32,000 nt of DNA from Nanobdellota archaeon (lineage in GTDB: Archaea > Nanobdellota > Nanobdellia > Nanobdellales > Nanobdellaceae), in contig AP031373.1 in the NCBI GenBank assembly GCA_042850255.1, positions 480,001-512,000 of the forward strand. The letters run 5' to 3'. The notes beneath the pieces are model-generated. The model was given only the letters and a program-made list of their open reading frames with translations, made no database searches and had not been told where the DNA came from. Position numbers and translations under genes: made by a program. The first letter of the stretch is position 1. Every line of letters begins with the position of its first letter. Positions 1,987 through 26,123 of the stretch are shown in pieces.

Positions 1987-2106
1987 TTAAGTATTATTTT
2001 GATAGTAAAATTTTTGATTTTTTATTTATGAATAATATAGGTTATATATGCTTTGTTTTCACAAAAAATATTCAAAACTTTAGTTTTTAGTATTTTTGAA
2101 CTAAAG

Positions 2107-2181
2107 CGGACCCGGGGGGATTCGAACCCCCGACCTACGGCTTAGAAGGCCGTCGCTCTATCCATGCTGAGCTACGGGTCC
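2107..2181 (-). tRNA. tRNA-Arg (anticodon UCU)
   Basis: The minus strand reads GGACCCG-TA-GCTC-AGCATGGATA-GAGC-G-ACGGC-CTTCTAA-GCCGT-AGGTC-GGGGG-TTCGAAT-CCCCC-CGGGTCC-G. This is a full cloverleaf with a GTTCGAATC T-loop and a CU-UCU-AA anticodon loop. No CCA is encoded. It is a G+C-rich island in AT-rich DNA. Confidence 0.93.
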
Positions 2182-2217: not shown

Positions 2218-2267
2218 TCTGCATATCGATGTTTCATCATATCTTCAGTAATGCCTTGCCTCTTCAT
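2218..2267 (-). ncRNA. candidate archaeal box C/D sRNA (2'-O-methylation guide) with non-consensus terminal boxes
   Basis: The minus strand reads ATGAAGA(C-like)-GGCAAGGCATTA(12 nt)-CTGA(D')-AGAT-ATGATGA(C')-AACATCGATATG(12 nt)-CAGA(D-like). The spacing matches the canonical 12-nt-guide archaeal architecture. It is relatively G+C-rich and intergenic. Confidence 0.5.
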
Positions 2268-2408
2268 TATTTAATACTAATTTTATATAATCTTAAAAGA
2301 TAAATTATTTATAATAATTTTTTAAAATTAAAAGAAAGAAAGTTAAATTTATTGTATTTTTTATAGATTTAGTTAAAATCTTTTAAATATAAAGACAAAT
2401 TGGACAAT

Positions 2409-2687: not shown

Positions 2688-2739
2688 AAAAATCTATTAT
2701 TAAATAACTTTAAAAATGTTGTTATTTAATAGTAGCAAA

Positions 2740-2967
2740 TTATTTTAAAAATGATATATCTGTAAAAATTCCTTCAGCAATCAAATCTGCAGCTAATTGT
2801 TCTAAAGATACTATTTTATATCCTTGTAATATAAAACTTCCATATTTAATATGATTATCGTATAATATAATTTTTATTCTCCCAGTTCTTTTCTTTTTAA
2901 ACTCCTTTAATAGTTCTAAATATAGTTCTTTATCAAAAATATAAACCCATAAATTATTTCCTGAACT
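2740..2967 (-). other. 75-codon open frame continuing in phase past the TAA of ORF 2968-3297; a pseudogene half or readthrough extension
   Basis: Directly after the TAA at 2968-2970 the same frame stays open: SSGNNLWVYIFDKELYLELLKEFKKKRTGRIKIILYDNHIKYGSFILQGYKIVSLEQLAADLIAEGIFTDISFLK, then a stop at 2740-2742. It contains no ATG. An open run this long is unlikely by chance in DNA this AT-rich. Confidence 0.45.
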
Positions 2968-3297
2968 TTAATTATATATTAAATTTTCTAAAAATTGTCT
3001 AGAAATTACGTAGTCTTTTTTACTTAATTCAGATAAAAAATCTTCTAAAAATAAAGTATCTGTTAAAAAATAATTTACTCTTTTTAAAATTTCTCTTTTT
3101 TCTATACCCAAAAATCTAATAAATTCTTCTAAATCTATTATCTCTATTTCACCATCTTTTAAAACTAAATTATTTCTTGCTAATTTATTAATTATTTTTG
3201 ATACATAAGATTTCGATGTATTAGATTCTTTAACTAAATCATTAAATGATATTTTTCTTTTAATCCCTAATACTCTATATATTTTCTCTTTTTCCAT
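2968..3297 (-). CDS. winged-helix DNA-binding protein, probably the N-terminal part of a gene disrupted by an in-frame stop
   Basis: 109-aa ATG ORF. ISFNDLVKESNTSKSYVSKIINKLARNNLV looks like an HTH recognition segment. It is divergent from the hsdM operon. Confidence 0.5.
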   Translation of the reverse strand: MEKEKIYRVLGIKRKISFNDLVKESNTSKSYVSKIINKLARNNLVLKDGEIEIIDLEEFIRFLGIEKREILKRVNYFLTDTLFLEDFLSELSKKDYVISRQFLENLIYN

Positions 3298-3417
3298 ATA
3301 TTTACTTGTTTACTGATATTTATAGATAAAAGTGAATAAGGAAACTACATATTAAGGGTTCTAAGAATTTTGTTTATAAATTTTCAATATATAAGTTTTT
3401 TTAAAATCATAAATATT

Positions 3418-5130
3418 ATGAATAATACTAATTCTGTATATAATAAACTTCTACAACAATTTGGAGATAAAGAATTTTCTATTAATGATATATTAAATAA
3501 AAAAATATTTGGAGATAATGAAAAAGATATTTTAGAAATATTAAATAAATTAAAAGAAAAAGGTTTATTAATTTTTGATAAAGAAAAAAATAAGTATAAA
3601 TTATTAATAAAATCTTTTGCAAATTATTCTAATTTAAAATCATCATTAAAGAAAGCTGCCGATTTAGTAAGAAACATGTCAGATGGTTATAAAATCCTTT
3701 TAGTTTTATTATTTTACAAAGCATTTAGTGATATATGGAAGAAAGAATATATTGAAGCAAAAGATCAATTAATAAAACAAGGTTTGCCCGAAAAGGATGC
3801 AGAAAAATTATCTAAATTAGAAGGATATCATATTATTAATATACCAGAAGAATATTTATGGGAAAATATATTAAGAACTAGAGAAGGATTAATTGAAAAA
3901 CTTATAAAAGCATTAAGAACTATTTCGGAGAGAAATCTAAAATTATCAGATTCTATTAATAGATTATTAAGATATATAGAAGATTTAAGAAATAAAGAAG
4001 GTTCTGACTTACTTATAAGACAAGCCATGGAAGTATTTAATAATATAGATTTTTCAAATTTAGATTTTGATGCTTTGGGATATGCATATGAATGGTTAAT
4101 AGAACAATTTATGCCAGCTCAGAAGAAGGCAGGAGAATTATTTACTCCTAGAGAAGTTATAGAAGTTTTAGTTAGAATATTAGATCCTTCTAAAGAAAGG
4201 AGGAAAATATTAGATCCGGCTGCAGGATCTGGTGGTATGTTAATAGAAGTATATAAATATGTTAGAAATAATTATGGAGAAGATGTTGCAAAAGAATTAA
4301 TATTAGTTGGACAGGAAATTAATGATGATACATATGCAATATTAGAATTAAATTTTCTTTTACATGGTATAGAATTGGGAAAAAATGTAAAATTATATAG
4401 AGGAGATTCTATATTAAATCCAGGATTTAAAAATGATGGACCATTTGATATTATTATATTTAATCCACCATGGAATGATGATAGATATAATGAAGAAGTT
4501 TTAAAAAAATCTGCAATAAAAGAAATATTTGATAAATATGGATTTCCCCCAAAAACCTCTGCAGATTGGGCTTGGATATTGTTATCATTAAATTACGTAA
4601 ATGATAATGGAAAAGTTGGTATTGTTATAGATAATGGAACTTTATTTAGAGGTGGTAGAGAAAAAACTATAAGAAGTAAAATAATTGAAAATGATTGGGT
4701 AGAGTGTGTAATATTATTACCAGATAAGTTATTTTATAATACTGGAGCACCAGGTGCTATAATAATTTTTAATAAGAATAAACCTGAAAATAGGAAAAAG
4801 AAAATATTATTTATAAATGCTTCCAATTATTATGAAAATCATCCAGATATAAAGAAAATGAATAAATTAAGTAGAGAGGGAATAGAGAAAATTGTAGAAG
4901 TTTATAAAGAATGGAAAGAAATACCAGAATTTTCTAAAACAGTTTCTATAGAAGAAGTAATTAAAAATGATTATAGTTTAAATGTTACTTTATATGTATA
5001 TAATAATTTACAAAATGAAGAAATAAATATAAAAGAAGTATGGGAAGAATTAGAAAAAGTTAATAAAGAATTGAACGAATTGGAAGGAAAAATAAATGAA
5101 TGGATAAATGAAATTACTAAAATAATATAA
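3418..5130 (+). CDS. hsdM: type I restriction-modification system, methyltransferase subunit HsdM (N6-adenine), with an N-terminal winged-helix-like extension
   Basis: HsdM N-domain pattern LKKAADLVRNMSDGYKILLVLLFYKAFSD; FTPREV; SAM motif ILDPAAGSGGML; catalytic NPPW. The track ORF starts at a TTG (3370). The first ATG is at 3418. Confidence 0.9.
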   Translation: MNNTNSVYNKLLQQFGDKEFSINDILNKKIFGDNEKDILEILNKLKEKGLLIFDKEKNKYKLLIKSFANYSNLKSSLKKAADLVRNMSDGYKILLVLLFYKAFSDIWKKEYIEAKDQLIKQGLPEKDAEKLSKLEGYHIINIPEEYLWENILRTREGLIEKLIKALRTISERNLKLSDSINRLLRYIEDLRNKEGSDLLIRQAMEVFNNIDFSNLDFDALGYAYEWLIEQFMPAQKKAGELFTPREVIEVLVRILDPSKERRKILDPAAGSGGMLIEVYKYVRNNYGEDVAKELILVGQEINDDTYAILELNFLLHGIELGKNVKLYRGDSILNPGFKNDGPFDIIIFNPPWNDDRYNEEVLKKSAIKEIFDKYGFPPKTSADWAWILLSLNYVNDNGKVGIVIDNGTLFRGGREKTIRSKIIENDWVECVILLPDKLFYNTGAPGAIIIFNKNKPENRKKKILFINASNYYENHPDIKKMNKLSREGIEKIVEVYKEWKEIPEFSKTVSIEEVIKNDYSLNVTLYVYNNLQNEEINIKEVWEELEKVNKELNELEGKINEWINEITKII

Positions 5131-5132
5131 AG

Positions 5133-5876
5133 ATGATTAATTATAAAATAAAAGATCTAAAATATAATGAAAACTGGAGATATGATCCGGAGTTTAAGAT
5201 ATTTATAGATTCTAATATTTTAGTAGATGGATCACTTAATAATTTTAGGTTTAAATCTTATAAAAAATTATTTGATGATCTATTTATAAAATCTAAGTTT
5301 ATTATCCTTGAAACTAATGTCATTAATATAGTCGAAGCAATTAAGATTCTTATGGACAAAGCAAAAGTTCATTTTTTTATAGATGAATTTGCTCATAATG
5401 TAAATGAACTAAAACATTTACCAGAAAAATATAGAAATTTTATTAATAAGTATTATAATGATATAAGAGAATCATATGGAAAACTATATATTAATAAGCT
5501 CGAAAAGTTTTTAAATTCATACAGAATCTCTGTAATTGATAATGTCAAAATAATATATAAGGATGAAGGTATTTCAGAAAATTGTCAATTTTTGTTAGAA
5601 GACGATGGTTTACTAAATCTCTTTATAATATATGATAAAAGAATAGAATATAATGATTTTATAAGTTTGGCTACTGCTAATCAATTAAAAGACAATATAT
5701 TCATTACTACTGATAACAGATTAGCTGATTCAGTAAAAGATTATAGAATAAATCATTCGAATAATTTTCGATATGTATATTCGCTTGCAGATAGAGGACA
5801 TATAGAAGATCTATTAAAAGATTTAATGAATTGGGGAATAATCGAGAATTATAAAATAGAAGATATCAGACAGTAG
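5133..5876 (+). CDS. PIN-domain-like putative nuclease embedded in the type I R-M operon
   Basis: 247-aa ATG ORF starting 3 nt after hsdM. The acidic motifs appear in PIN/VapC order: KIFIDSNILV, FIILETNV..VE, NDFISLATANQL, NIFITTDNRLA. A large insertion lies between the second and third motifs. Confidence 0.5.
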   Translation: MINYKIKDLKYNENWRYDPEFKIFIDSNILVDGSLNNFRFKSYKKLFDDLFIKSKFIILETNVINIVEAIKILMDKAKVHFFIDEFAHNVNELKHLPEKYRNFINKYYNDIRESYGKLYINKLEKFLNSYRISVIDNVKIIYKDEGISENCQFLLEDDGLLNLFIIYDKRIEYNDFISLATANQLKDNIFITTDNRLADSVKDYRINHSNNFRYVYSLADRGHIEDLLKDLMNWGIIENYKIEDIRQ

Positions 5877-5877
5877 C

Positions 5878-7212
5878 ATGTTAAATAAATTAGTTTTCTA
5901 TAAGGAGATAAAATTTAAAGATATTCCAGAATTAGGAATAAAAATTCCTGAAGATTGGAGAATTAAAAGATTAGTAGAAATATGCTCAAAAATAAGAGCA
6001 GGAGGCACACCTAAAAGAGAAGTTTCAGAATATTGGGGAGGAAGTATACCATTTGTAAAAATAGAAGACATAACTAAAAGTGGCAAATATCTTTATAAAA
6101 CGGAAGAGACAATTACAGAGTTAGGTATAAAAAATTCGAATGCTTGGATGATACCAAAAAATTCTCTACTTTTAGCTATGTATGGTAGCTTAGGAGAAAT
6201 TTCTATAAATAAAATTGAAGTAGCTACGAATCAAGCTATTTTGGGGATTATTCCAAATCCAAATAAAATATATCTAGAATATTTATATTATTGGTACCTA
6301 TTTTTTAAGCCTAATTGGAAAAAATATGCTAAACCTACAACTCAAGCCAATTTGACAGCCGAAATCGTCAAAAATTCTTTGATTCCTCTTCCTCCTCTCG
6401 AAGAACAAAAAGCTATTGCAGAAATATTAAGTACTATAGATAAAACAATCGAAAAGATTCAAGAGAATATCGAAAAAACTGAAAAATTAAAAAAAAGTTT
6501 AATGCAAAAATTGTTAACGGGAGAAATAATAGTTAAAGAAGAAAATGGAAAATATATATTTTATAAGGAGATAAAATTTAAAGATATTCCAGAATTAGGA
6601 ATAAAAATTCCTGAAGATTGGAGAATTAAAAGATTAGATGATAATGAAATTTCTTTAAATATAAGATCAGGAACTACGCCATCTAAAAGAAAAGAATCAT
6701 ATTGGAATGGAAATATTTTATTTGTTACAATTAGCGATATGACTAAAACAAATAAATACCTTATAGATACAGAAAATAAGATAACAGAACTAGCTCTGAA
6801 AGAATCTAAAGTACTTTTAATTCCAGAAGAAAATATACTTCTATCTATGTATGGAACTATAGGGAAAGTAGTTATTAATAAGAAACCAGTAGCTATAAGT
6901 CAGAATATTGCTGGTATTATAGTAAATAAGCAATATGTGGATATTAATTACTTATTCTATGCTTTAAAATATTATTCATATCAATTTGACCGAGCTAAGA
7001 TCATTACTTTAAAACATTTAGATATAAAAATCGTCAAAAATTCTTTGATTCCTCTTCCTCCTCTCGAAGAACAAAAAGCTATTGCAGAAATATTAAGTAC
7101 TATAGATAAAAAAATAGAACTATTAAAACAGAAAAAAGAATTATTAGAAATAATTAAAAAATGGTTTATGAAAAAATTGTTAGCAGGAGAAATAAGAGCA
7201 AAATATGGATGA
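5878..7212 (+). CDS. hsdS: type I restriction-modification system, specificity subunit HsdS (two target recognition domains)
   Basis: 444 aa in two tandem halves of about 221 aa. Each half has a TRD followed by the conserved IPLPPLEEQKAIAEILSTIDK helix typical of HsdS. Confidence 0.9.
   Translation: MLNKLVFYKEIKFKDIPELGIKIPEDWRIKRLVEICSKIRAGGTPKREVSEYWGGSIPFVKIEDITKSGKYLYKTEETITELGIKNSNAWMIPKNSLLLAMYGSLGEISINKIEVATNQAILGIIPNPNKIYLEYLYYWYLFFKPNWKKYAKPTTQANLTAEIVKNSLIPLPPLEEQKAIAEILSTIDKTIEKIQENIEKTEKLKKSLMQKLLTGEIIVKEENGKYIFYKEIKFKDIPELGIKIPEDWRIKRLDDNEISLNIRSGTTPSKRKESYWNGNILFVTISDMTKTNKYLIDTENKITELALKESKVLLIPEENILLSMYGTIGKVVINKKPVAISQNIAGIIVNKQYVDINYLFYALKYYSYQFDRAKIITLKHLDIKIVKNSLIPLPPLEEQKAIAEILSTIDKKIELLKQKKELLEIIKKWFMKKLLAGEIRAKYG
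5899..5974. repeat. 76-bp perfect direct repeat, copy 1 (start of TRD1)
   Basis: Identical to 6562-6637: tataaggagataaaatttaaagatattccagaattaggaataaaaattcctgaagattggagaattaaaagattag. Confidence 0.9.
6362..6445. repeat. 84-bp perfect direct repeat, copy 1 (conserved region after TRD1)
   Basis: Identical to 7028-7111: aaatcgtcaaaaattctttgattcctcttcctcctctcgaagaacaaaaagctattgcagaaatattaagtactatagataaaa. Confidence 0.9.
6562..6637. repeat. 76-bp perfect direct repeat, copy 2 (start of TRD2)
   Basis: Identical to 5899-5974, at an offset of 663 nt. Confidence 0.9.
7028..7111. repeat. 84-bp perfect direct repeat, copy 2 (conserved region after TRD2)
   Basis: Identical to 6362-6445, at an offset of 666 nt. 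Confidence 0.9.
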
Positions 7213-8290
7213 TAAATATTATATATATGGAGAATATCTTTTATATGTTTTTATAATAATTATTATTTTTTCTTATATATTTCTAGTTATATTTAGAATA
7301 ATATATAATAGTATTTTTTATATTTTAAACCCTAATCTGTTAAATATAACCTTAAATATACTAAATAAGCAGATTTTAAATAGTTTAATTATATCTATAT
7401 TGTCGGTCTACATTTATCAGTTATATATCATTTTTAATAAAAAGTCTCATTTTTCAGATATATTTGAACAAAATAAAATATATATAAATATTGGTAATTT
7501 ATTTACGAACTTAGCAGGAATGGTTTTATATAACCCCTTTATTAATTTTGTATTTTTATTTTTGATATATTATTATGTATATATTATTTTTGGAAATCTT
7601 CCATCTTTACTATTTATAGTAGTTTTTTATGTTTCCCTTCTTTTAATAGAGTTTATTTTTAGAAATTTATTGTACTTAGATATTACAATAAAGTCTAATT
7701 ACAGTTCTCTCAAAGAATTTTATGATCCTTATATAAACAAAAAGATACAAGTAGATAATAAAGGTTATCTGATAGCCTCAGCTTTAATCATAAGTATAAA
7801 TACAGCATTTTTTTATATTATCCGATGTTTTTCGATATTTATTATAAGTATATTATTTGTGGTTTTGCTTATAATGGTCGTATTTACGATTTTGGTAGCT
7901 ATAAAAAAATTGAAAAAAGAGTATCTTATCTATTTTTATCGAGAACTATATCCTAATTTAAATATTTTTTATTCTTTGTTAAGGTTTTTCGAATATATGA
8001 TAATAATAGTTATTCCTTTTTTACTTTATTATATTTTTTACTATATGAATCTTTTAGAAATCATCAAAATTATAATTGCCTTTATTATAATAGAAGTTAT
8101 GTTGGATATAATAACTGTTTTTAACAAAATATTAAAAATTCCTTTCCTTATTAAATATTTAGAATTAGAAAACGGTATATTTTATGCCAATATCTTGCTT
8201 CTCGAAGAAACAAAAGATTATTTAATTATTTTAGATCAATCTAATAATATAATTAGAGTCTATAAAAATAAAATTATTGAAATGTATTAA
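7205..8290 (+). CDS. hypothetical polytopic membrane protein embedded between hsdS and hsdR
   Basis: 361-aa ATG ORF whose start overlaps the hsdS stop (ATGGATGA). It has roughly 7-9 hydrophobic helices by eye and a short soluble C-terminal tail, LELENGIFYANILLLEETKDYLIILDQSNNIIRVYKNKIIEMY. No family recognised. Confidence 0.55.
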   Translation: MDDKYYIYGEYLLYVFIIIIIFSYIFLVIFRIIYNSIFYILNPNLLNITLNILNKQILNSLIISILSVYIYQLYIIFNKKSHFSDIFEQNKIYINIGNLFTNLAGMVLYNPFINFVFLFLIYYYVYIIFGNLPSLLFIVVFYVSLLLIEFIFRNLLYLDITIKSNYSSLKEFYDPYINKKIQVDNKGYLIASALIISINTAFFYIIRCFSIFIISILFVVLLIMVVFTILVAIKKLKKEYLIYFYRELYPNLNIFYSLLRFFEYMIIIVIPFLLYYIFYYMNLLEIIKIIIAFIIIEVMLDIITVFNKILKIPFLIKYLELENGIFYANILLLEETKDYLIILDQSNNIIRVYKNKIIEMY

Positions 8291-8326
8291 GTTATATAAA
8301 AGGTATTACAAATATATTAAATTATA

Positions 8327-11300
8327 ATGAATGAGCAACAAATCAAACAAAAAGTATTGGAAATTTTAAAATCAAATAATTGGAATTATATTGAAAGTAA
8401 AAATTTAAACAAATCATCAAAAGAGATTATTATAGAAGATATCTTCTTCAAAAAAATAAGAGAATTAAATAAAAATTTAGAATTAACTGATAAAGATATA
8501 GAAAAAGTTTTAGATAAATTATTAAATTCTGATGGTAAAGAAGTTTTAAGATATTTAAAGAAGGGAATTTCAATTAAATTAGAAAAAACAAATAATATAG
8601 AAACAATAAAGATAATAGATTATGAAAATATAGAAAATAATTCCTTTATTGTATCTGATGAAGTTAGATTTAAACAAATGGAAAATGAGATTTATGTAGA
8701 TTTAGTACTGTTTATTAACGGAATTCCTTTTATTATAATAGAAAATGAAAGTATGAAAGATGGAGAGTGGAAAAAAGGATTTCAACAAATAGTTAATTAT
8801 ATTAAACTTATACCAAAATTAGCAAATATAAGTCAAATAGGTTTAGTTATTGCAGATAATATATATTATTTTCCAATTGATGAAGAATTTATTAAAAAGG
8901 AAGAATCTAAATTAGAAGGAAGATTGCAAATATGGAAACCTGATGAAAATAGAAAAACTAACGATTGGAATACAATATTAAATTCAACTATTGGCTATTT
9001 ATTAAAACCTGAAATATTATTAAAAATAATAAAATATTATACTTTTTATCAAATAAAAGAGAATAGAAAAATATTGCCAAGATATTTTCAATTTTATACT
9101 GTTGAAAAATTATATAATAAATTTAAAGAAAGATTGGAAGGAAAATCTAGTGATAAAAGTTGGGTTGTATGGCATTATCAAGGATCAGGAAAATCTATGA
9201 CAATGGCTTATTTATCTAAAATAATATTAAATAAATTGGGTAAAGAATTTTCAATAGATCCTGTAATATTAATTGTGGTTGATAGATTAGAATTACAAAA
9301 TCAAATGGATGAACAGACTTTTAAAAATGTAGATTTAGATTTAGAGCATCCTGAAAAAGTTATCGATAATTTAAGAGAATTATTAATTGATATATTAAGA
9401 AAAGGAGAAAAACCACAATCTGGTGTATATATTGTAACTATACAAAAGTTTGGGAAAAGTAGTTCAGAAGAATCTGAAGATGAAGATTTAAATACAGACG
9501 ATTTATATAATTCAGTAAAAGGTGTTGGATTAACAGAAGAAGATATAAAAAGAATTTCGGGAAGAAAAGATATATTTATATTAATAGATGAGGCGCATAG
9601 GAGTCATTATGGAAAATTGGGAAAAATACTAAATTATATATTTGGATCTGCATTTTATGTTGCATTTACAGGTACTCCATTATTAGGTAAAGATAAAAAT
9701 ACATTTAGATTATTTGGAGAACCTATAGATATATATTTTATTGATGAAGCTGAAGAAGATAAATATATAGTTCCTATCTTTTATAGAGCAGAATATGATA
9801 TAATAAATTTGACTTTAGATATACTTAAAAAAGAAAAAGAAATAAAAGATAATGAAGAATATAATAAAGTTATTACTGAAGTATTAGAAGGATATTTACC
9901 AGAAAATTTAGAAAATATAGAAAAAATTTATAATTTAAATGAATCTTTAAAGAGAAAATTATTAGATTTAAGAAGATTAGTATTTGAGAATGATTATAGA
10001 ATTAAAGAAATTAGTAAGAAAATATCTGAACATTTTAAAAATGAAGTAGAGCCTTTAGGTTTTAAAGCAATGGTAATAGTAGCTACTAGAAAAGCTGCAG
10101 TTAGGTATGTAAAAATATTAAAAGAATTGTTGGGAGAAGATACTGTAGAAGCAATTATAACATATCAAGGAACAGAAGATGATACTGAAATTTTGAATTA
10201 TAGGGAATATTTAATAAAAAAATATGGAAAAGGATTGAAAGATTATAATGAATTAAATGATATAATAAAAAATAAGTTTAAGGAAGATGAAAATCCAAAA
10301 ATATTGGTAGTAGTAAATAAATTAATAACAGGTTTTGATGAGAAGAAATTACAAACAATATATATAGATAGGTTTATGGTTAGTCATACATTATTACAAG
10401 CTATAGGGAGATGTGATAGACCATATCCTGAAAAGAATAAAGTTAATGGCTTAATAGTAGATTTTGTTGGATTAATAGATAGATTAAAAAAAGCCATTGA
10501 TTTATATTTTGGAACTAAAGATATAAAATTGGATCAATCAATATTATTGGAATATAAAGATATAAAAAGCGAATTAAAGAAAATTATAGATAAAATAAAT
10601 GAAAAAATATTTAATATTGTAGATATGGACCTAAATAAGGAGTTATCTAATTATAAGAAATATTTAGAGAATAATAATGTAGAATCTATAAAAGATTTAA
10701 TAGACGATATAATATTAGATATACTAGAAAATGGTTTAGATGGAAAATTTAGGGAAATTTTTAGAGAATTTGAAAGTACTTTATTTTCTCCAGTAACAGA
10801 TTTAAATATAAGGGAAGAATTTTATATATATTATGAGTTTTTATTATTAATTAAAAGTCAGATAGATTCTTTAAAAGAAAATGAAATAAAAACAGTTGAT
10901 GATATTAAAAGAATAGCAAATATTAAGGCTGAAGAAATTTTAGATAAATTATATAAAAATACAACGATACAACAATTTTTAACTTTTGAAAAGAAAGAAC
11001 TATCAGAAATAGTATCTGATGTAAAATCTGGAAAATATATAAATATTATAGATTTAAATAAGTTATCAAATAACGAAAAAGAGAGTAAAAAGGTATTGGC
11101 AAAATCTGTAAAGGCAATGATAATACTAAAAGAAAATGAACCGGCTTTTGTAGATATAATAGACAAAATAATAAAGAAAATTCAAGATTATAATAGAAAG
11201 AAGTATAATTCTTATATGATATTAAGTGAATTAATACCAGAAATTAAAAAGATACAAGAAATAGAAGATATAAAAAATAAATATAATTTTGATAGTGATG

Positions 11301-11581
11301 GATTGTTTATCTATAATTTATTATCAGAATCAATTAAAGATTTAAATGAAGAAGAGTTAATAAACATATCTAAGAAAATAAGAGAAAAGATATTGGAAGC
11401 TGAAGAACATAAAGAAAGTAATGATTTTTGTAGAATATTAAGTAGGAATATACAATTTGGGGTTGTTATATCATTATTAAATAAAAATATTGATGAAAAT
11501 ATAAAAGAAAATATAGTAAAAAGGATAAAAGAGCATTTTGCTAATAAATATAAGGAATGTCAGGACGAACTATTAAGATAA
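8327..11581 (+). CDS. hsdR: type I restriction enzyme, restriction/helicase subunit HsdR
   Basis: 1084 aa. The N-terminal PD-(D/E)xK-like nuclease region is VDLVLFINGIPFIIIENESMK. SF2 helicase motif I is GSGKS, motif II is LIDEAHRSH (DEAH), and the later motif is QAIGRCDR. Confidence 0.92.
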   Translation: MNEQQIKQKVLEILKSNNWNYIESKNLNKSSKEIIIEDIFFKKIRELNKNLELTDKDIEKVLDKLLNSDGKEVLRYLKKGISIKLEKTNNIETIKIIDYENIENNSFIVSDEVRFKQMENEIYVDLVLFINGIPFIIIENESMKDGEWKKGFQQIVNYIKLIPKLANISQIGLVIADNIYYFPIDEEFIKKEESKLEGRLQIWKPDENRKTNDWNTILNSTIGYLLKPEILLKIIKYYTFYQIKENRKILPRYFQFYTVEKLYNKFKERLEGKSSDKSWVVWHYQGSGKSMTMAYLSKIILNKLGKEFSIDPVILIVVDRLELQNQMDEQTFKNVDLDLEHPEKVIDNLRELLIDILRKGEKPQSGVYIVTIQKFGKSSSEESEDEDLNTDDLYNSVKGVGLTEEDIKRISGRKDIFILIDEAHRSHYGKLGKILNYIFGSAFYVAFTGTPLLGKDKNTFRLFGEPIDIYFIDEAEEDKYIVPIFYRAEYDIINLTLDILKKEKEIKDNEEYNKVITEVLEGYLPENLENIEKIYNLNESLKRKLLDLRRLVFENDYRIKEISKKISEHFKNEVEPLGFKAMVIVATRKAAVRYVKILKELLGEDTVEAIITYQGTEDDTEILNYREYLIKKYGKGLKDYNELNDIIKNKFKEDENPKILVVVNKLITGFDEKKLQTIYIDRFMVSHTLLQAIGRCDRPYPEKNKVNGLIVDFVGLIDRLKKAIDLYFGTKDIKLDQSILLEYKDIKSELKKIIDKINEKIFNIVDMDLNKELSNYKKYLENNNVESIKDLIDDIILDILENGLDGKFREIFREFESTLFSPVTDLNIREEFYIYYEFLLLIKSQIDSLKENEIKTVDDIKRIANIKAEEILDKLYKNTTIQQFLTFEKKELSEIVSDVKSGKYINIIDLNKLSNNEKESKKVLAKSVKAMIILKENEPAFVDIIDKIIKKIQDYNRKKYNSYMILSELIPEIKKIQEIEDIKNKYNFDSDGLFIYNLLSESIKDLNEEELINISKKIREKILEAEEHKESNDFCRILSRNIQFGVVISLLNKNIDENIKENIVKRIKEHFANKYKECQDELLR

Positions 11582-12237
11582 ATAATTTGGAATTTAATAT
11601 AAAGGTAGAAAAAACAAATTCTAAATATACATACATAAAATTTAATGGTAATAATATAATAATAAAAACGAAGTTTAATAATGTTGATAATATAATACCA
11701 ATTATAGAAAAAAATTTGGAAAAATTAGAATTATATTCTTTACCAAAAGAGATATTCGAAGAATTACCAATATTTGGAATTCCATATAAATTAATTATAA
11801 AAAATATAAAAAGAAAATATTTAATATTTCATAAGAAAAGATTAATTATATTAAATCCAAATTATAAGGAAGATTTTATTAATTATCTATCGAAATTATT
11901 AATTAAATATTGTAGTAAAGAGATTAAGAAGTTTTTAAAATTATTAGACATAAATATAAATCCAGAGATAGAAATAAAAATTATGAAATCTAAATATGCT
12001 TATGTAAAGGATAATAAAATATATTTGAGTATAATAAATGTATTTTTTCCAAAATATTTGATAGATTATATTTTATTTCATGAAGTTATACATTTTAAGA
12101 TTAAAAATCATGGCTATCAATTTAAAAAGTTATTAGAAATGCTTTATCCAAATTATAAAGAATTAGAAAAAGAATTAAAAAAGTGGACAATTGCAATATT
12201 CTATAACAAAAATATAAATAATTTATTAAATATCTAA
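11557..12237 (+). CDS. DUF45/YgjP-like zinc metallohydrolase (HExxH), a family frequently linked to type I R-M loci
   Basis: 226-aa ATG ORF overlapping the hsdR 3' end by 25 nt. The C-terminal ILFHEVIHFKIKNHGYQFKKLLEMLYPNYKE matches the DUF45 HExxH...H..F signature. Confidence 0.7.
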   Translation: MSGRTIKINNLEFNIKVEKTNSKYTYIKFNGNNIIIKTKFNNVDNIIPIIEKNLEKLELYSLPKEIFEELPIFGIPYKLIIKNIKRKYLIFHKKRLIILNPNYKEDFINYLSKLLIKYCSKEIKKFLKLLDININPEIEIKIMKSKYAYVKDNKIYLSIINVFFPKYLIDYILFHEVIHFKIKNHGYQFKKLLEMLYPNYKELEKELKKWTIAIFYNKNINNLLNI

Positions 12238-12323
12238 TTATCCAGAATTTTTAATTGTTTCGAAAATATAGACTTTCCAAATAAGAGGATTAAAAAAAGA
12301 TAAAAGATCTATTAGGTTTAATT

Positions 12324-12506
12324 ATGCTGATATCTTTTACTAAATATGATATAAGTGTTGTAAAAGAATTAATAAAGAAATATGAATTATATCCTAAAAT
12401 TATAATAGAAGAATTCGATATTGTAAAAGATTTATTAGAATATTTTGATTTTTCTCAAGAAGAGATAAATAATTTGAGAAAAATTTTAATGATCATAGAA
12501 GATTAA
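12324..12506 (+). CDS. hypothetical small acidic protein
   Basis: 60-aa ATG ORF, helical and acidic. No family recognised. Confidence 0.35.
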   Translation: MLISFTKYDISVVKELIKKYELYPKIIIEEFDIVKDLLEYFDFSQEEINNLRKILMIIED

Positions 12507-12523
12507 GATAAAAATTCTTTGTA

Positions 12524-12742
12524 ATGTTTGATAAATTAAAAATAATTATGGCAAATGAAATAATCCAAATATCGAAAGATGAGTTGATTCGAATATTTGA
12601 GGATAAATTGAAAGAAGTATTGTTACAAGCATTTATTGAATTAATTCCATATGTATCTGAAAAAGAACAAAAAGAAATAGAAGAAATAGTAGGTGATATA
12701 TCAAAATATAAGAAAGAAAATTTTGAAGATCTCTATATATAA
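12524..12742 (+). CDS. hypothetical small acidic protein (possible antitoxin-like or regulatory protein)
   Basis: 72-aa ATG ORF. The ELIPYVSEKEQKEIEEIVG segment resembles small thermophile proteins I cannot name with certainty. Confidence 0.35.
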   Translation: MFDKLKIIMANEIIQISKDELIRIFEDKLKEVLLQAFIELIPYVSEKEQKEIEEIVGDISKYKKENFEDLYI

Positions 12743-12835
12743 AAATAAATTTTAAATTAGTATAATTAAAAATTAAATTTTTTATTATCCATTTTTTATT
12801 ATTTCATATTTTTTAATTTAAATTTGACATAGTAA

Positions 12836-12881
12836 GACCGCGGGGATTCGAACCCCGGTCCCTGGGACCCAAACCCAGTAG
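12836..12881 (-). repeat. tRNA-Pro 3'-portion fragment (positions about 26-71), a putative att-type duplication
   Basis: gaccgcggggattcgaaccccgGtccctgggacccaaacccagtag matches 14202-14247 at 45 of 46 positions in the same orientation. It covers the anticodon arm, variable region, T arm and most of the 3' acceptor strand. Similarity stops abruptly on both sides. Confidence 0.8.
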
Positions 12882-12984
12882 TAAAGAAAAATTTCGCATT
12901 TTCATATTCAAAAAGCTTTAAATCATTGAATAAGATTATTTTACATATTATGTAAATTTTAACATGTATAGCAGTTTAATTATT

Positions 12985-13347
12985 CTATTTTTTTATTGTT
13001 ATTATCCTTATCTCCATATTTCTAGGTTTATCTTCCACAGCATTCTTGTGTATCTCGAAGAACCAACTCTTTTTGTATTTTTTTGCCATCTCTTTTGAAT
13101 TCGAAAAAATTTTAATAACAGTATTACATTTTTCACAGATTATTCCATAAAAATCGGGCCAATATCTAAATATTATGACGATAAAAAGATATATTGGGAT
13201 TTTATATTTTTTATATACATATACTAATATTTGTGGTGTTTGCTCTTTACATATAGGACAGTATCCTTCAAATTTTTCTAGAACTTGTAATTTTCTTTTT
13301 ACTGAAATAACCTTTATATTTTCATTATTTATAGTATTATTTTTCAT
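12985..13347 (-). CDS. hypothetical zinc-ribbon protein with a central hydrophobic segment
   Basis: 120-aa ATG ORF with two CxxC pairs (CPICKEQ ... CEKCNT) flanking IPIYLFIVIIFRYW. Confidence 0.45.
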   Translation of the reverse strand: MKNNTINNENIKVISVKRKLQVLEKFEGYCPICKEQTPQILVYVYKKYKIPIYLFIVIIFRYWPDFYGIICEKCNTVIKIFSNSKEMAKKYKKSWFFEIHKNAVEDKPRNMEIRIITIKK

Positions 13348-13498
13348 AAAATTATTTTTTAGGATTATTAATAAAAATTTTACTTAATTAGTTTTTAGGT
13401 AATTATCCCAATAAAAATTATTGTATCAAATTATAATAAAACTACGGGAAGACGAGATTTAAACAATATATTTAAATGTTTCTAGTAATAATTAATGT

Positions 13499-14095
13499 AT
13501 GGAAAGTAAACAAGATAGATATAAATGGACAACTAGAGAAATAGTATTTTTGACAATTGCAATAATATTTGCTATTCTTACTGTTGTCTTTGGTTTTCTT
13601 TATGTGAATAATAATAATGTTAATAAAAATACAATTTCGATAAATCAATATAATGCATTATTATCTAACTATACTAGTTTACAAGAACAGTATAATGCTA
13701 TATTACAAGGAATGCAGGGTGGTTTGGGATCATCAACTCTTATACAACCTGGTTATATGGATGCACTTACAACACTTTATGTACCATATAATTGTATAGC
13801 AACTGCTACCCTGAGTGTAAATGCTAGTGGTTTTGTTTATGTATATATTATGGGTTTATATAATACTATATATAACCAGGTAAATAACTATTCAATATCT
13901 CTTGGATTGCCACCTCCTTATAATATTAGTTATTATTATCAATTTAATGGAACCTACATAAATCAGATTATAACTTTAGAACCAAATTACGCTGGTGGAG
14001 ATTATTATTTTGTATTTGTAGATAATGAAGGAACATCGCCAGTTTATGCAATAGCGGATATTTATTTGGACAATCTTTCATGTTATATAAGTTGA
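13499..14095 (+). CDS. hypothetical membrane-anchored, Asn/Tyr-rich secreted-type protein
   Basis: 198-aa ATG ORF. TM helix IVFLTIAIIFAILTVVFGFLYV is followed by an N/Y/S-rich domain with several N-x-S/T sequons. It shares a PYNC motif with ORF 974-1432. Confidence 0.5.
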   Translation: MESKQDRYKWTTREIVFLTIAIIFAILTVVFGFLYVNNNNVNKNTISINQYNALLSNYTSLQEQYNAILQGMQGGLGSSTLIQPGYMDALTTLYVPYNCIATATLSVNASGFVYVYIMGLYNTIYNQVNNYSISLGLPPPYNISYYYQFNGTYINQIITLEPNYAGGDYYFVFVDNEGTSPVYAIADIYLDNLSCYIS

Positions 14096-14198
14096 AATAC
14101 ATAGATTTTATTGTTAATTTTTATTTGCGTATATTATAATTTAAGTCCATTATTTTTAAGTTTAGCTATTTTCTTTATTAGAAATAAGAAATAAAATC

Positions 14199-14269
14199 TG
14201 GGACCGCGGGGATTCGAACCCCGATCCCTGGGACCCAAACCCAGTAGCCTTCCACTAGCCTACGGTCCC
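14199..14269 (-). tRNA. tRNA-Pro (anticodon UGG)
   Basis: The minus strand reads GGGACCG-TA-GGCT-AGTGGAA-GGCT-A-CTGGG-TTTGGGT-CCCAG-GGAT-CGGGG-TTCGAAT-CCCCG-CGGTCCC-A. The anticodon loop is UU-UGG-GU with G37. No CCA is encoded. Confidence 0.9.
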
Positions 14270-17716: not shown

Positions 17717-18421
17717 ATGACAGAATATATAGAAATATTTATTGATAGAGATGAATTTTCCGATAGAATTGGAGGAGGAATACCAAAAGGTAGTTTATTT
17801 ATAATTGAGGGAGATGATGGAACTGGAAAAAGTATAGTTTGCCAAAGAATATTATATGGAGCTTTAGTTAATAATCATAAAGTATCATATATATCTACAG
17901 AATTATCTATTATAGATTTTATTAAACAAATGGATTCTTTAGGTTATGATATAAAAGATTTTATATTAAATGGAAAATTATTATTTATTCCAACATTGAA
18001 TGTATTTGGAAAAATAAAAGAAAAAGAAAATTTAATATTTGAATTAACAAAAGAAAAAGCTAAGAAAATATTTGAAAACGAATTAATTATTATAGATTCT
18101 TTATCATATCCATTAATAAATGGATTGACAAAAATGGATTCTATAAAATTAATAGAATTTTTAAATAAGGTAAAAAATTTAGGAAAGACAATAATTGTTA
18201 CATATAATCCTTCTGAAATAAATGAATTTTTTGTTAAAAATGTAAGAAGAGTTTCTGATATTTACTTTAATTTAAGGTATAGTTCGTTGGAAGAGGGGTC
18301 TATGCTAAAAGTAATAGAAGTAAAAAGGTTTAGATATCCTAAAGGAATATATAATAATTTAATACCATTTAGAGTAGAGCCAAATATAGGGCTAATAATT
18401 GAAATATCTTCATATGTATAA
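17717..18421 (+). CDS. arlH: archaellum protein ArlH (FlaH), a RecA/KaiC-like ATP-binding protein
   Basis: 234 aa. GGGIPKGSLFIIEGDDGTGKS (Walker A) has the KaiC/RecA-like layout. The TAATG junction overlaps the arlI start. Confidence 0.75.
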   Translation: MTEYIEIFIDRDEFSDRIGGGIPKGSLFIIEGDDGTGKSIVCQRILYGALVNNHKVSYISTELSIIDFIKQMDSLGYDIKDFILNGKLLFIPTLNVFGKIKEKENLIFELTKEKAKKIFENELIIIDSLSYPLINGLTKMDSIKLIEFLNKVKNLGKTIIVTYNPSEINEFFVKNVRRVSDIYFNLRYSSLEEGSMLKVIEVKRFRYPKGIYNNLIPFRVEPNIGLIIEISSYV

Positions 18422-21400
18422 TGCCTGAGGAACAGATACAGAAATTAGAAAATAAGCAAGAATATGTTATAAAGAGAGATAAGGTTAATGTAATAAATAA
18501 TGATATAACTAAAAATTTTGATGAAGCATTAGCGAAATATTCTCATTTAAGATCTTATATAAATGATATTTCTAGAAAAATTGGATTACCAGAATGGATG
18601 ACATCTTTAGACTTTTCATTAAAATCTAGGGAAGAATTTAACATATTATATCCTGTAGGAGATCCTATATTTATACATATATATAAATTATCTAGCGGAG
18701 AATCTTATTATAATGTAATAGAACCTGAGTTAACAAAAGATGAAAAAGAAAAATTAGAAAAAATACAAACAAAAATTGTTAAGTATGCTGTTGAGAATAT
18801 AAATTTAAATAATATAGAAGAAGTTAAAAAAACTGTAATAGATTTATTTAATAGAGTTGTAGAAGTTGGAAGAAGATCTTTATTTTCTGATAAAGTATTT
18901 ATTAAAAATAAGGAAGAATATGATAGATTATTGTATTTCTTAATTAGAGAAAGATTTGGTTATGGATTTTTAGAACCATTTTTAAGAGATCCATATTTAG
19001 AAGATGTACATATATTGGGAATGGGTCCTATTTATGTTGTTCATAAAATATTTGGTATGTTACAGACTAATAGAAAATTTGAAGATGAAAAAGATTTAAA
19101 TAGATATATAATAAGGTATTCTGAAATTGTAGATAGACCTGTTTCTGAAACAAGACCAATTGTAGATGCAATATTACCAGACGGTTCAAGAGTTAATTTT
19201 ATTTATGGAAAAGATATATCTCTACATGGATCTTCATTTACAATTAGAAAATTCTCTGCTAAACCTTTAAGTATTACACAATTAATTTCCTTTGGTACTA
19301 TTTCACCAGAAGAAGCTGCTTATTTATGGTTAGCAATTGAAAATGGAATGAATATTGTTGTATCTGGAGAAACTGCTTCAGGTAAGACTACATTATTAAA
19401 TGCTTTAACTACATTTATTAGACCAGATGCTAAAGTATATTCTGTAGAAGATACTCCTGAATTAAATATACCCCATCCAATTTGGCAAAGATTGGTTACT
19501 AGAGAAGTTGGAAAAGCTGCAGATGTAAGTATGTATGATTTACTTAGGGCAGCATTAAGGTCTAGACCTAATTATATATTAATAGGTGAGATAAGAGGAA
19601 AAGAAGGATATGTAGCTTTCCAGGCGATGCAGTGTGTAAAAGATGCAAAAGTTGTTTTAGGTGATGAAGTAAAAAATATAAAAGATTTATTTGAAGAATA
19701 TAAAAATAAATATGGAGTTAAAATAATTGATGGGAAAGAAGTTGTTGAAATAAAAGATAACTTTGAAATACCATCTTATAATGGTAAAGAAATAACAAAA
19801 GCAAAAGTAAAAGCAATTTTAAAAATGCCAAAAAGTAAGTTAATAAGAGTTATTTTAGAGGATGGAAATGTATTTGAAGTAACGCCAAATCATAAGTTTA
19901 TAACAAATTATGGTGAATTATCTGCTGAAGAATTATATGAAGCATATAAGAAAAATTTAAATATATATGTAAAAAGAGTGAATAATTTTGAAAAGAAAGA
20001 AGAAAATGGTATAAAATTTAAAGAAGAAAAGTTAGAATTATCAAATCCATGGTTCTGGTATGGATTAGGAAGATTATTAGGAGATGATTCTATATTTATT
20101 TATTATAAAAATGATAAAATTAAAGGATTTATATGGCAAGCAAAAACAACTCATAAAGATGAGGCAAAATGGATGGAAATAATGGACAAAGTATTACCAA
20201 ATAATTCTAAAAGCAAAATAAAAACAGAAGGAAACACTTATATAAAAAGAATATATTTAAAATGGTGGTTTGTAGATTGGTTAATAAAAAATGGATTTAT
20301 AGAAATACCTGAAAAGAAAAATGAATATGCATCTGCAGTAATTAAACATGTTGGAAATATACCTAAAGAAGCATTAGGACCATTTTTAGCGGGTATGTTT
20401 GATTCTGACGGTTCTATATTATGGGTAAATAAGAAAACAATGTTATTTAGATTTGCATTAGATTTAAATAGAAAAAATAGAGAAGATTATCCATTAGCTA
20501 TAGAACAAATAAAATTATTTAAGAAATTGAAAGGAAAGTTACCAAAAATATTAGAAGTAGTCTTTAGATATTCCTCAGAATATGAAGATTTAGTAAAAAG
20601 ATATAAAGAAGAAATAGAAAAGAATGGAGTAAAAGTAAAGATGAAAAGATATGATAAAAGAAGGGGAATATATGGATATGTAATATTTTCAACTAAAAGG
20701 GAAAAATTAAGATGGTTTGCAGAAAATGTAGTTCCATATATGTTAAGAGAAGATAAAAAAGAAAATATATTAAGAAAAATAAATGTAGAAATTAAAAGAA
20801 AAGATAAATTAAATATAAATGATTATGAAGTGAAATATATTGAGGTAAAAGATAAAGATGTAGATAAAATGATAGAAAAATTATGGTTAAGTGGATATGA
20901 TTTCTCCTTAGATTCGATATTTAATAGAAAGAGAATAATTTATTTAGATAACCGTGAATATGTAAAAGTAATTAAGGTTGAAGAAGCTGGAGAGGATTAT
21001 ACTTATGATATATTATTAGAGGGGGGAGGAAAATATTATGTAGGATTTAATGGAGGTGGTGCAATTGCAATAGAAGATACAGGACATCCTGTAATGACTA
21101 CGTTTCACTCAGGTAATATTGCTTCATTAATAGAAAGAATGACTGGAGAACCAATAAATATTCCAATAACATTTATAGATAACTTAAATATAGCGGTATT
21201 TACATCTACTGTAACTGTAAAAGGTAGAATGGAAAGAAGAATAACAAGTATATATGAAATAGAAAGATATATTGCAGAATTAAAGAAAGTAGCAGTTAGA
21301 AGAGTATTTTCTTGGGATAGTGTTAGAGATAAACATATGTTTTCTGGAAAATATAATAGTTATATATTAGAAAGAAAAATTGCTCCTTTAATGAAAATAG

Positions 21401-24759: not shown

Positions 24760-24797
24760 AAAATATTTTACTAAAAAATATTTTTAATTTTAAAAAA

Positions 24798-24846
24798 TCT
24801 GTGCTCAAGACCCTCATCATATATCAGCCGATGAGTTTGTCTTCAT
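24798..24846 (-). ncRNA. candidate archaeal box C/D sRNA with the same non-consensus terminal boxes as 2218-2267
   Basis: The minus strand reads ATGAAGA(C-like)-CAAACTCATCGG(12)-CTGA(D')-TAT-ATGATGA(C')-GGGTCTTGAGCA(12)-CAGA(D-like)-TTTTTT. It is a G+C-rich island. The C-like box overlaps the TGA stop of ORF 24843-26123. Confidence 0.5.
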
Positions 24847-26123
24847 CCTCCCCATGGGAATGGATAATTATTAGAATTTTGATTATTATTAGAATTTGTA
24901 TTAATATTTACAGATGCTGATGCTTGTGTACTAGAATTATTTTTAGCAATTGAAGATCTTTCTTCTCCTTCAATTTCCATTATACTAGAATTTAATCCTT
25001 CCTCCTCTCCAATTTCTACTTCTATTTTATATCTTATTTTATCAAAATGTTCTTCTTCAACATTTTCTTGAAATCCTTCACCTACTGATCTAACCACATT
25101 CCAGTCGTCCATTTCCAAATTATTTTGTAAGGACATTAAATAAGGAATTGCTGTAACATTTCCAGATTTTAATTCTTGAATTGTTTGTTGTAATGATTGA
25201 TTTAATTGTGGTAGTACTGTACAAATTGGTAATGAATTATTTGTTACATTACATATTAATGCAAATTTATATACTAATAGTACTTGTTGATCTATTAATC
25301 TATTTATATGCTTTTCTATAATATATGATACATTTATATTATTATTTCTATATTTCATAAAGTCGTCATCTATTTCTTTTTCTAACTCATCTTTTTCTAA
25401 TGTAACATTTACTGGTTGATTTACAACATATGGTACTATACAAGCTCCATGTAATTCTCCTATAAGTAAATATCTTATATCCTCCCAAGAAGTATTATCA
25501 GTAATATTTACATATATATAGCTATTACATTGTACAGAAGGAGTAATATTTGGGGTATATATAGTATATTTAATACCTAAGCTATTTAATTGATCTGTAA
25601 TATTTCCTAAGTCTCCAATATTTCCAGTAAATATGTATACATTACTTACGTTTAATTTTTCTAATGTATAAACAGTTTCTGTAGGTAATACACCATCAGG
25701 AACAATCAATAATGGTATATTATTTGATTCTGCAGTTTCTACAGCTTCTGTTACTAGTTTTAGTTTATAACCTTTAACATTATGATTTACAAGATCTCTT
25801 GTAATTAATACTGCAGAACTGGAACTATTCCAGAAATATAATGCAACATCTGCAGATGTATCATACCTTGTTGCTCCCCAAATCCATGTATATTTTATAT
25901 CAGATTCATTTAAATCTTGTAATAATAAATTTGATATTACTGCAGGACCTCCTATTACAATTACATTTGTTACATTATTTTGTAATAACATTTGTACCGT
26001 TTCATTTATCGATGACGGATTTTGCCTTACAGTATAAATTGGTATTTTATATACTTCCCCTACTACGCTAGCTGTTATATAATCTGCATATGTAATATTT
26101 GTAACCAAGATTGCAGTAACCAT
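24843..26123 (-). CDS. putative surface glycoprotein with cell-wall-binding repeat 2 (CW_binding_2)-like modules
   Basis: 426 aa. ADYITASVVGEVYKIPIY...VIVIGGPAVIS...WGATRYDTSADVALYF resembles the PF04122-type repeat. It carries about 18 N-x-S/T sequons and an Asn-rich C-terminus. Confidence 0.5.
   Translation of the reverse strand: MVTAILVTNITYADYITASVVGEVYKIPIYTVRQNPSSINETVQMLLQNNVTNVIVIGGPAVISNLLLQDLNESDIKYTWIWGATRYDTSADVALYFWNSSSSAVLITRDLVNHNVKGYKLKLVTEAVETAESNNIPLLIVPDGVLPTETVYTLEKLNVSNVYIFTGNIGDLGNITDQLNSLGIKYTIYTPNITPSVQCNSYIYVNITDNTSWEDIRYLLIGELHGACIVPYVVNQPVNVTLEKDELEKEIDDDFMKYRNNNINVSYIIEKHINRLIDQQVLLVYKFALICNVTNNSLPICTVLPQLNQSLQQTIQELKSGNVTAIPYLMSLQNNLEMDDWNVVRSVGEGFQENVEEEHFDKIRYKIEVEIGEEEGLNSSIMEIEGEERSSIAKNNSSTQASASVNINTNSNNNQNSNNYPFPWGG

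Follow-up and report, generated by a model that had tools for sequence, protein, structure and literature searches.

The 32,000-nucleotide (nt) stretch of contig AP031373.1 analyzed here (hereafter the window, in whose coordinates all positions are given unless another sequence is named) comes from a Nanobdellota archaeon and carries, on its minus strand, two short loci laid out as archaeal C/D box small RNA (sRNA) genes. Direct reading gives AUGAAGA-GGCAAGGCAUUA-CUGA-AGAU-AUGAUGA-AACAUCGAUAUG-CAGA for the first locus (sRNA1, 2267..2218) and AUGAAGA-CAAACUCAUCGG-CUGA-UAU-AUGAUGA-GGGUCUUGAGCA-CAGA for the second (sRNA2, 24846..24798), i.e., box C, D' guide, box D', loop, box C', D guide and box D, a compact dual-guide arrangement that a first-pass annotation of the window had read in exactly this way, including the recurrence of the same variant terminal boxes at the second locus (Table 1). 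In both loci the internal boxes are perfect (CUGA and AUGAUGA), the two guides are 12 nt each and the loops measure 4 and 3 nt. The terminal boxes keep their GA dinucleotides and the G6-C1 pair and differ from consensus at two positions only, box C position 5 and box D position 2, which correspond to 3b and 3n in kink-turn (k-turn) nomenclature and do face each other as had been proposed, such that the usual U•U is replaced by A•A. The window has ~22% G+C content, and its phosphomannomutase is 85% and 74% identical to those of Nanopusillaceae metagenome-assembled genomes (MAGs), 66% identical to that of Nanobdella aerobiophila and 53% to that of Nanoclepta; on such identities, both sRNAs belong to a Nanopusillaceae nanoarchaeon.

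Table 1 Features of the two sRNA loci and of the surrounding window, with the evidence for each
Feature	Position	Strand	Evidence
sRNA1, 50-nt dual-guide C/D box sRNA gene	2218..2267	-	pattern statistics, covariance model, orthologues
sRNA1 box C AUGAAGA, position 5 = 3b = A	2261..2267	-	orthologues A/GUGAAGA
sRNA1 D' guide GGCAAGGCAUUA (DNA GGCAAGGCATTA)	2249..2260	-	12/12 with relatives' 23S
sRNA1 box D' CUGA	2245..2248	-	sequence
sRNA1 loop AGAT (DNA)	2241..2244	-	sequence
sRNA1 box C' AUGAUGA	2234..2240	-	sequence
sRNA1 D guide AACAUCGAUAUG (DNA AACATCGATATG)	2222..2233	-	site inferred via KM4331-08 orthologue
sRNA1 box D CAGA, position 2 = 3n = A	2218..2221	-	CAGA in every orthologue
sRNA2, 49-nt dual-guide C/D box sRNA gene, terminal boxes AUGAAGA/CAGA	24798..24846	-	pattern, covariance model, orthologues
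sRNA2 D' guide CAAACUCAUCGG (DNA CAAACTCATCGG)	24828..24839	-	pairing with N. equitans tRNA-Leu
sRNA2 D guide GGGUCUUGAGCA (DNA GGGTCTTGAGCA)	24802..24813	-	pairing with related tRNA-Leu(CAA)
Candidate promoter box A TTTTAAGATT	2289..2298	-	-31 to -22 from sRNA1 box C
tRNA-Arg(TCT)	2106..2181	-	ARAGORN, Rfam; 36 nt downstream of sRNA1
TGA stop of ORF 24843..26123 (CWB2-domain protein), inside sRNA2 box C	24843..24845	-	ORF list, Pfam
T6 run immediately 3' of sRNA2 box D, likely archaeal terminator	24792..24797	-	T-run in all orthologues
Type I restriction-modification gene hsdM	3370-5130		
Type I restriction-modification gene hsdS	5878-7212		
Type I restriction-modification gene hsdR	8327-11581		

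The composite pattern AUGAAGA-N12-CUGA-N3/4-AUGAUGA-N12-CAGA has 2 matches in the window and 0 in 100 dinucleotide-preserving shuffles, while relaxed regular-expression scans of the window returned no further double-guide C/D layout, canonical or variant. A covariance model trained on 24 other nanoarchaeal sRNAs, with the window sequences excluded from training, scores sRNA2 at 43 bits and sRNA1 at 40 bits (E ~1e-6), the next match reaching 14.8 bits. We additionally scanned 185,579 species genomes (596 Gb) with the pattern TGAAGA-N11-13-CWGA-N3-5-RTGAWGA-N12-CAGA and matched at least 117 blocks. These results allow us to weigh the possibility that the motif is a chance product of AT- and purine-rich DNA, or else a part of the tRNA-Arg promoter or leader. 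In its favour are the very high AT content of the genome, the position of sRNA1 next to the tRNA-Arg promoter region, and ~28 bacterial, chance-like matches (most of them without R before UGAAGA) among those listed in the genome scan; against it stand the empty shuffles, the covariance-model score obtained with an independent training set, the location of sRNA2 far from any tRNA, and the guide-level conservation and complementarity to ribosomal RNA (rRNA) and tRNA described below. A chance origin, which the first-pass annotation had also argued against, is effectively refuted, and we would assign it a vanishingly small probability.

Orthologues of sRNA1 lie between tRNA-Pro(TGG) and tRNA-Arg(TCT) in the sister MAG KM4331-08, in four Nanopusillus MAGs and in Nanobdella, and orthologues of sRNA2 are present in KM4331-08, Nanopusillus, Nanobsidianus, Nanobdella and Nanoclepta. 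Across these 4-5 genera the alignments retain the boxes and the guide cores (GCAAGGCAUU / ACAUCGAU; ACUCAUCG / GGUCUUGAGC), with flanking DNA that is unalignable between genera. The sRNA1 gene was correctly placed upstream of tRNA-Arg, on the same strand, and this sRNA-tRNA-Arg neighbourhood is preserved at all orthologous sRNA1 loci.

We then asked of relatives' RNAs whether any guide finds at least 9 base pairs (bp) of complementarity covering N+5, the target residue opposite the fifth guide nucleotide counted upstream from box D or D'. The 23S rRNA was obtained by a metagenome scan for the predicted D' target of sRNA1: four Nanopusillus contigs carry GCGUAAUGCCUUGCC, and the locus L154 combines a complete 23S and a complete 16S gene with a FlaI-like open reading frame (ORF) 98% identical to Ca. 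Nanopusillus MAG proteins. The homologous FlaI-like gene in KM4331-08 led to the locus L242, with 23S, 16S and RNase P RNA. The soundness of the target scan is borne out by a Nanoclepta guide, which falls on the universally methylated G2251.

The D' guide of sRNA1 forms 12/12 Watson-Crick pairs with KM4331-08 23S 2005-2016 (UAAUGCCUUGCC, also present in Nanopusillus 23S), a result equalled by 0/300 shuffled guides. The site corresponds to E. coli 1936-1947 in domain IV, and its N+5 nucleotide, G2009, makes the G at the E. coli 1940 equivalent the predicted target of this guide. For the D guide the predicted site is 23S 2551-2562 (GACAUCGAUGUC), equivalent to E. coli 2496-2507 on the peptidyl-transferase strand, with N+5 at U2555, the E. 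coli U2500 equivalent. The KM4331-08 version of this guide (GACAUCGAUGUA) pairs at 11/12 positions with its own 23S (0/300 shuffles equal). For AACAUCGAUAUR, the form common to the window, Nanopusillus and Nanobdella, pairing is limited to an uninterrupted run of 8 and one further pair, guide position 3 being a C•A mismatch. Since both KM4331-08 substitutions create new Watson-Crick pairs, the U2500-equivalent assignment is supported as a prediction, firmly for KM4331-08 and more weakly, at 8-9 bp, for the window guide. The first-pass annotation had instead matched the first 8 nt of the D guide's complement to a conserved segment of 23S domain V. Such a segment does exist in the H89 loop of E. 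coli (CAUAUCGAC, 2475-2483), but it is not the target, because it reads CCCAUUGAC in Nanopusillaceae 23S, where the guide scores poorly; the actual D guide site lies 20 nt downstream of it, and the stronger target belongs to the D' guide.

A separate nanoarchaeal sRNA family with the D' guide AAUCGAUGUCGA places its N+5 on the C2498 equivalent, two nt from U2500, so that the two equivalents are predicted targets of two different sRNA families; E. coli 23S itself carries Cm2498. Hotspots of rRNA methylation have been described in H68-71 and H90-93. The Nanopusillaceae segment GACAUCGAUGUC (23S 2551-2562 in L242 and 2552-2563 in L154) is a perfect 12-nt palindrome, as a consequence of which guides to this peptidyl-transferase site resemble their own target, and at the positions equivalent to the near-universal C2499 and to G2509, Nanopusillaceae 23S carries A and U, respectively.

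For sRNA2 the predicted targets lie in a tRNA. Its D guide makes 11 contiguous pairs with GCUCAAGACCC in the anticodon arm of tRNA-Leu(CAA) from nanoarchaeote MC-1, with N+5 at C34, and N. equitans sRNA12 carries the same guide, for which PLEXY had given a poor 23S match (Randau 2012, PMC3491384). Pyrococcus sRNAs have likewise been reported or predicted to target position 34 of tRNA-Leu(CAA), and we predict C34 of this tRNA as the target, as shown on related tRNAs; no Nanopusillaceae tRNA-Leu(CAA) gene was found in the ~360 kb of loci examined. The D' guide forms 10 Watson-Crick pairs and 1 G-U pair with positions 40-51 of N. equitans tRNA-Leu(TAG), N+5 being U44, so its probable target is U44 of the same tRNA-Leu(CAA), with 23S ~position 633 as a weaker alternative. 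In the source organism, we predict that the 23S carries UAAUGCCUUGCC and (G/C)A(C/U)AUCGAUGU(C/U) and that tRNA-Leu(CAA) carries GCUCAAGACCCGAUGAGUUU. Viral contigs scanned for the predicted tRNA-Leu and 23S targets gave chance matches only, in neither tRNA nor rRNA.

Conservation and targeting together bear on a second alternative, that the loci are decaying or non-functional sRNA relics (pseudogenes or mobile sRNA-like elements) whose odd boxes reflect lost function. In its favour, the boxes deviate from consensus, pairing of the sRNA1 D guide is weak in most species, and sRNA copies that are mobile or resemble miniature inverted-repeat transposable elements are known in N. equitans and Pyrobaculum. 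However, the four GA dinucleotides that form the G•A pairs, the spacing and both guides are kept in 4-5 genera whose flanks are change-saturated, the D' guide matches a conserved 23S site at 12/12 positions, and the N. equitans sRNA with the highest expression has these variant boxes too, all of which leaves decay a very improbable account.

The same variant could be followed in a set of 26 RNA-seq-verified C/D sRNAs from N. equitans (Randau 2012 Additional file 2, PMC3491384), of which 25 were parsed, with a manual correction to the parse of sRNA16. Their 50 motifs comprise 31 U•U, 12 A•A, 5 A•U, 0 U•A and 2 other combinations, with 3b = A strongly associated with 3n = A (Fisher p = 8.9e-8). 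Terminal A•A is present in 8/25 sRNAs and internal A•A in 4/25, never in both motifs of one sRNA, and the most abundant species, sRNA8 (207,100 reads), carries terminal A•A. Mixed A•U motifs occur in the expressed N. equitans sRNAs 2, 10, 21 and 25 as well as in the loci L006, L020 and L029.

Switches between the two states are visible within orthologous families. The internal motif of sRNA2 reads AUGAUGA/CUGA in seven genomes and AUGAAGA/CAGA in KM4331-08, with the guides unchanged, and in the ACAUCGGUUCUU family one member (L010) has terminal A•A and internal U•U, another (L014) has U•U in both motifs, and a third (L024) has terminal U•U and internal A•A. Orthologue conservation, N. equitans covariation and these switches indicate that the U•U-to-A•A change, which the first-pass annotation had called concerted, is real, co-varying and compatible with high expression. 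In a Nanopusillaceae MAG (L065 1932-2027, plus strand), two C/D sRNA genes stand head to tail with zero spacer, the upstream one with terminal and the downstream one with internal A•A; they are probably dicistronic.

The change is not lineage-specific, contrary to what had been suggested. Among the matches listed in the genome scan, ~40 of the at least 117 blocks are Thermoproteota and a few come from other archaea, with the variant boxes occurring in conserved sRNA families of Vulcanisaeta, Thermoproteaceae, Desulfurococcaceae and Pyrodictiaceae, such as families with GUCAGAGUUA guides common to Vulcanisaeta and Thermoproteaceae. Exclusivity to Nanoarchaeota is thereby ruled out; the sequences surveyed indicate a variant that is very frequent, or enriched, in Nanoarchaeota and turns up sporadically among thermophilic archaea outside this group. 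Published N. equitans sequences had contained it before; the main text of that study (Randau 2012, PMC3491384), which we searched for box sequences, leaves the A/A variant unmentioned, and a literature search for an explicit AUGAAGA/CAGA (A•A) description found none, a result that does not disprove its existence elsewhere. Separately, three matches of the scan (L005, L007 and L061) share the sequence GGGGCG-GTGAAGA-GCGGACGCCAAG-CTGA-CAG-GTGATGA-TACCAGTATGCA-CAGA-GCCGAACA with identical flanks in MAGs of three bacterial phyla from one project (MFD bins); this is not an sRNA, the candidates being a conserved gene, a mobile element and contamination during binning.

Overall, we hold with high confidence that both loci are genuine archaeal C/D box sRNA genes and that A•A is a co-varying, functionally tolerated state of the motif. 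Several observations weigh against this view. At the gathering threshold, Rfam finds only two tRNAs in the window and no C/D family, the scores for C/D families being 15-26 bits vs. thresholds of 36-50 (the best are snoPyro_CD at 15 bits for a threshold of 45, and sR52 at 26 bits for a threshold of 50); that nearly all matches below threshold are to families of C/D-box s(no)RNAs, most of them archaeal, speaks for the view. Both loci are known from DNA sequence alone, with evidence at the RNA level for the class coming by analogy from N. equitans RNA-seq, and the RNAs used for target prediction are those of relatives (KM4331-08 L242, Nanopusillus L154, MC-1 and N. equitans). The 8-contiguous-pair form of the sRNA1 D guide is matched by 194/300 shuffled guides and is thus not significant alone. 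The geometry of the A•A pair and its protein binding are features that we only infer. Finally, neither the window nor the orthologues show a consistent complementary stem flanking boxes C and D, and the canonical C helix expected from complementarity of the 5' and 3' termini is lacking. Because of this missing stem, the terminal motif is k-loop-like rather than a textbook k-turn, and is better described in that way or as circularisation- or protein-dependent.

By analogy with the class, the ~50-nt RNA would fold with box C pairing box D and box C' pairing box D', each through two sheared G•A pairs, giving two k-turn/k-loop motifs that would recruit L7Ae, Nop5 and fibrillarin. Each 12-nt guide would base-pair with its target RNA, and fibrillarin would then 2'-O-methylate the N+5 nucleotide. 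In the AUGAAGA/CAGA motif the U•U stacked on the G•A pairs is exchanged for A•A, which may act as a third sheared-type purine pair, and the motif would still depend on L7Ae for folding. In general base-pair isostericity, A•A can take the sheared geometry and so extend a G•A/A•G stack. U:U is reported to be strongly favoured at 3b•3n in archaeal and human C/D k-turns. In Kt-7, where all 16 combinations at 3b•3n have been tested, the identity of this pair tunes folding, ion-driven folding needs 3n = G or 3b = C, and even the worst-folding variant (G-C) still folds on L7Ae addition (McPhee 2014, PMC4382518). As A•A has neither 3n = G nor 3b = C, it is expected to be protein (L7Ae)-dependent like U•U. 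In eukaryotes, the stem that holds the 3b•3n pair has been tied to binding of the Nop proteins and not of the L7Ae homologue, suggesting that any effect of A•A is as likely to fall on Nop5 as on L7Ae.

Why A•A should be so common admits two accounts. In the first, the variant is non-adaptive and nearly neutral, fixed by mutation pressure at 22% G+C in ribonucleoproteins (RNPs) that tolerate A•A and A•U but not U•A, and the apparent concertedness would arise because purifying selection removes one of the intermediates. The mixed A•U motifs listed above fit this account, as do the presence of A•A in unrelated archaeal lineages and the L7Ae-assisted folding in vitro of even the worst Kt-7 variant. 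On the other hand, A•A is over-represented relative to A•U (12 vs. 5) with U•A absent, it is stably inherited across genera, and AT pressure alone offers no explanation because a U-to-A change leaves G+C content unaltered; we consider the chances of the neutral account to be evenly balanced. In the second, which we regard as unlikely, A•A is under selection in Nanoarchaeota as a state with a function of its own, and Nop5 or L7Ae would show corresponding features specific to the lineage. Were it true, the non-canonical stem of sRNAs that are stem-less and hyperthermophilic might gain stability from a third sheared purine pair, or A•A might mark one of the two motifs and bias RNP assembly or guide usage, the latter idea following from the observation that A•A in N. 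equitans never occupies both motifs.

While these findings leave the general understanding of C/D RNP function unchanged, they have consequences for annotation. sRNA finders keyed to RUGAUGA/CUGA miss A•A genes (snoscan cleanly predicted 2/8 of the terminal-A•A N. equitans sRNAs), and C/D guides are therefore under-annotated in DPANN/Nanoarchaeota genomes; the variant pattern or a small covariance model recovers such guides across the family. The data also offer a clear-cut case of covariation in nature, from U•U to A•A without a single U•A, at a k-turn position that tunes folding, together with predicted ribose methylations in minimal-genome organisms on the peptidyl-transferase centre strand (2498 and 2500 equivalents), within domain IV of 23S and on the tRNA-Leu(CAA) wobble base.

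The two genes differ in their likely mode of expression. Upstream of sRNA1, the motif TTTTAWRA is found at -31 to -22 from box C in four genera (including KM4331-08, Nanopusillus and Nanobdella), compared with an N. equitans box A consensus of TTTAAA at -27 (Randau 2012, PMC3491384), and transcription of sRNA1 is probably driven by a separate promoter whose box A would lie near -27, a call made in very AT-rich DNA. The TATA-like TTATATAAAA noted in the first-pass annotation is indeed present at 2290-2281, but at -23 to -14 it is too near box C to serve as the TATA box, and the conserved -31 to -22 box fits better. In sRNA2, box C contains the upstream ORF's stop codon, an overlap reported for about one quarter of archaeal sRNA genes and chiefly within box C, and this sRNA probably derives from the mRNA upstream, by release from its 3' end.

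Comparison with KM4331-08 also revealed differences in the surroundings of sRNA1. In that genome tRNA-Pro(TGG), a 90-aa membrane ORF, sRNA1 and tRNA-Arg lie within ~600 bp, whereas in the window ~11.5 kb (2688-14198) separate tRNA-Pro (14199-14269) from the orthologous 92-aa ORF (2409-2687). This stretch holds a MarR-like gene, type I restriction-modification genes, a YgjP-like peptidase gene and small ORFs, and looks like an island inserted on the 3' side of tRNA-Pro. Within it, at 12836-12881, is a 46-nt copy of the 3' part of tRNA-Pro (14202-14247) that runs from the anticodon stem to the acceptor end and contains a single mismatch. It shares the orientation of the intact gene, 1.3 kb away, and resembles an att-type duplication of the sort that integrating elements leave behind; Pfam recognised no integrase in this interval.

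Elsewhere in the window, a FlaI/T2SSE-type ATPase (18421-21552, plus strand) has 1043 aa vs. 561 aa in its 85-90% identical KM4331-08 orthologue. The extra residues (~405-886) start with Cys after ...FQAMQ, end before TGHPV and give a weak match to Pfam Intein_splicing, which points to an intein in the ATPase core, probably with a homing endonuclease inside. In KM4331-08, the ProRS gene is adjoined at L242 16263-16497, on the minus strand, by an RNase P RNA of the archaeal type, whose score of 86.6 bits narrowly exceeds the threshold of RF00373. N. equitans is known to lack RNase P, and the RNA found here suggests that the present family, by contrast, keeps it.

Compared with known systems, the window sRNAs share box order, spacing and the N+5 rule with Pyrococcus and other archaeal C/D sRNAs (snoPyro_CD RF00095 and sR families; Omer 2000, Gaspin 2000), but in Pyrococcus the boxes hardly vary from RUGAUGA/CUGA, 3b•3n is U•U, and terminal stems are present. 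The H. marismortui Kt-7 (3b•3n = A•G; McPhee 2014, PMC4382518) has, as here, tandem G•A/A•G pairs followed by a non-Watson-Crick 3b•3n, although its A•A data come from outside the C/D context and extend to C/D sRNAs only by extrapolation. On the peptidyl-transferase strand, the nanoarchaeal guides act in prediction on the same strand as E. coli RlmM (Cm2498), a protein-only enzyme where nanoarchaea would use RNA guidance. The closest parallel is with the N. equitans sRNAs (Randau 2012, Genome Biol 13:R63, PMC3491384), which have the same ~50-59 nt length, 12-nt guides and 3-4-nt loop, likewise lack a terminal stem, with termini reported unpaired, combine (A/G)UGAAGA with CAGA boxes in 12/25 parsed sRNAs, and share the tRNA-adjacent gene arrangement. 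Two of them, sRNA9 and sRNA5, aim at the 23S segment that the sRNA1 D' guide addresses, but with other N+5 nucleotides, shifted by 5 nt in the upstream and by 4 nt in the downstream direction, respectively. They differ in that the N. equitans tRNA-Leu guide occupies the D' slot beside an rRNA guide while sRNA2 has it as D guide, and in that the window sRNAs are from Nanopusillaceae at ~22% G+C and are documented here at the level of genomic sequence. Collectively, sRNA1 and sRNA2 are two new, previously unannotated archaeal C/D box sRNAs, and those of N. equitans are their closest described counterparts.

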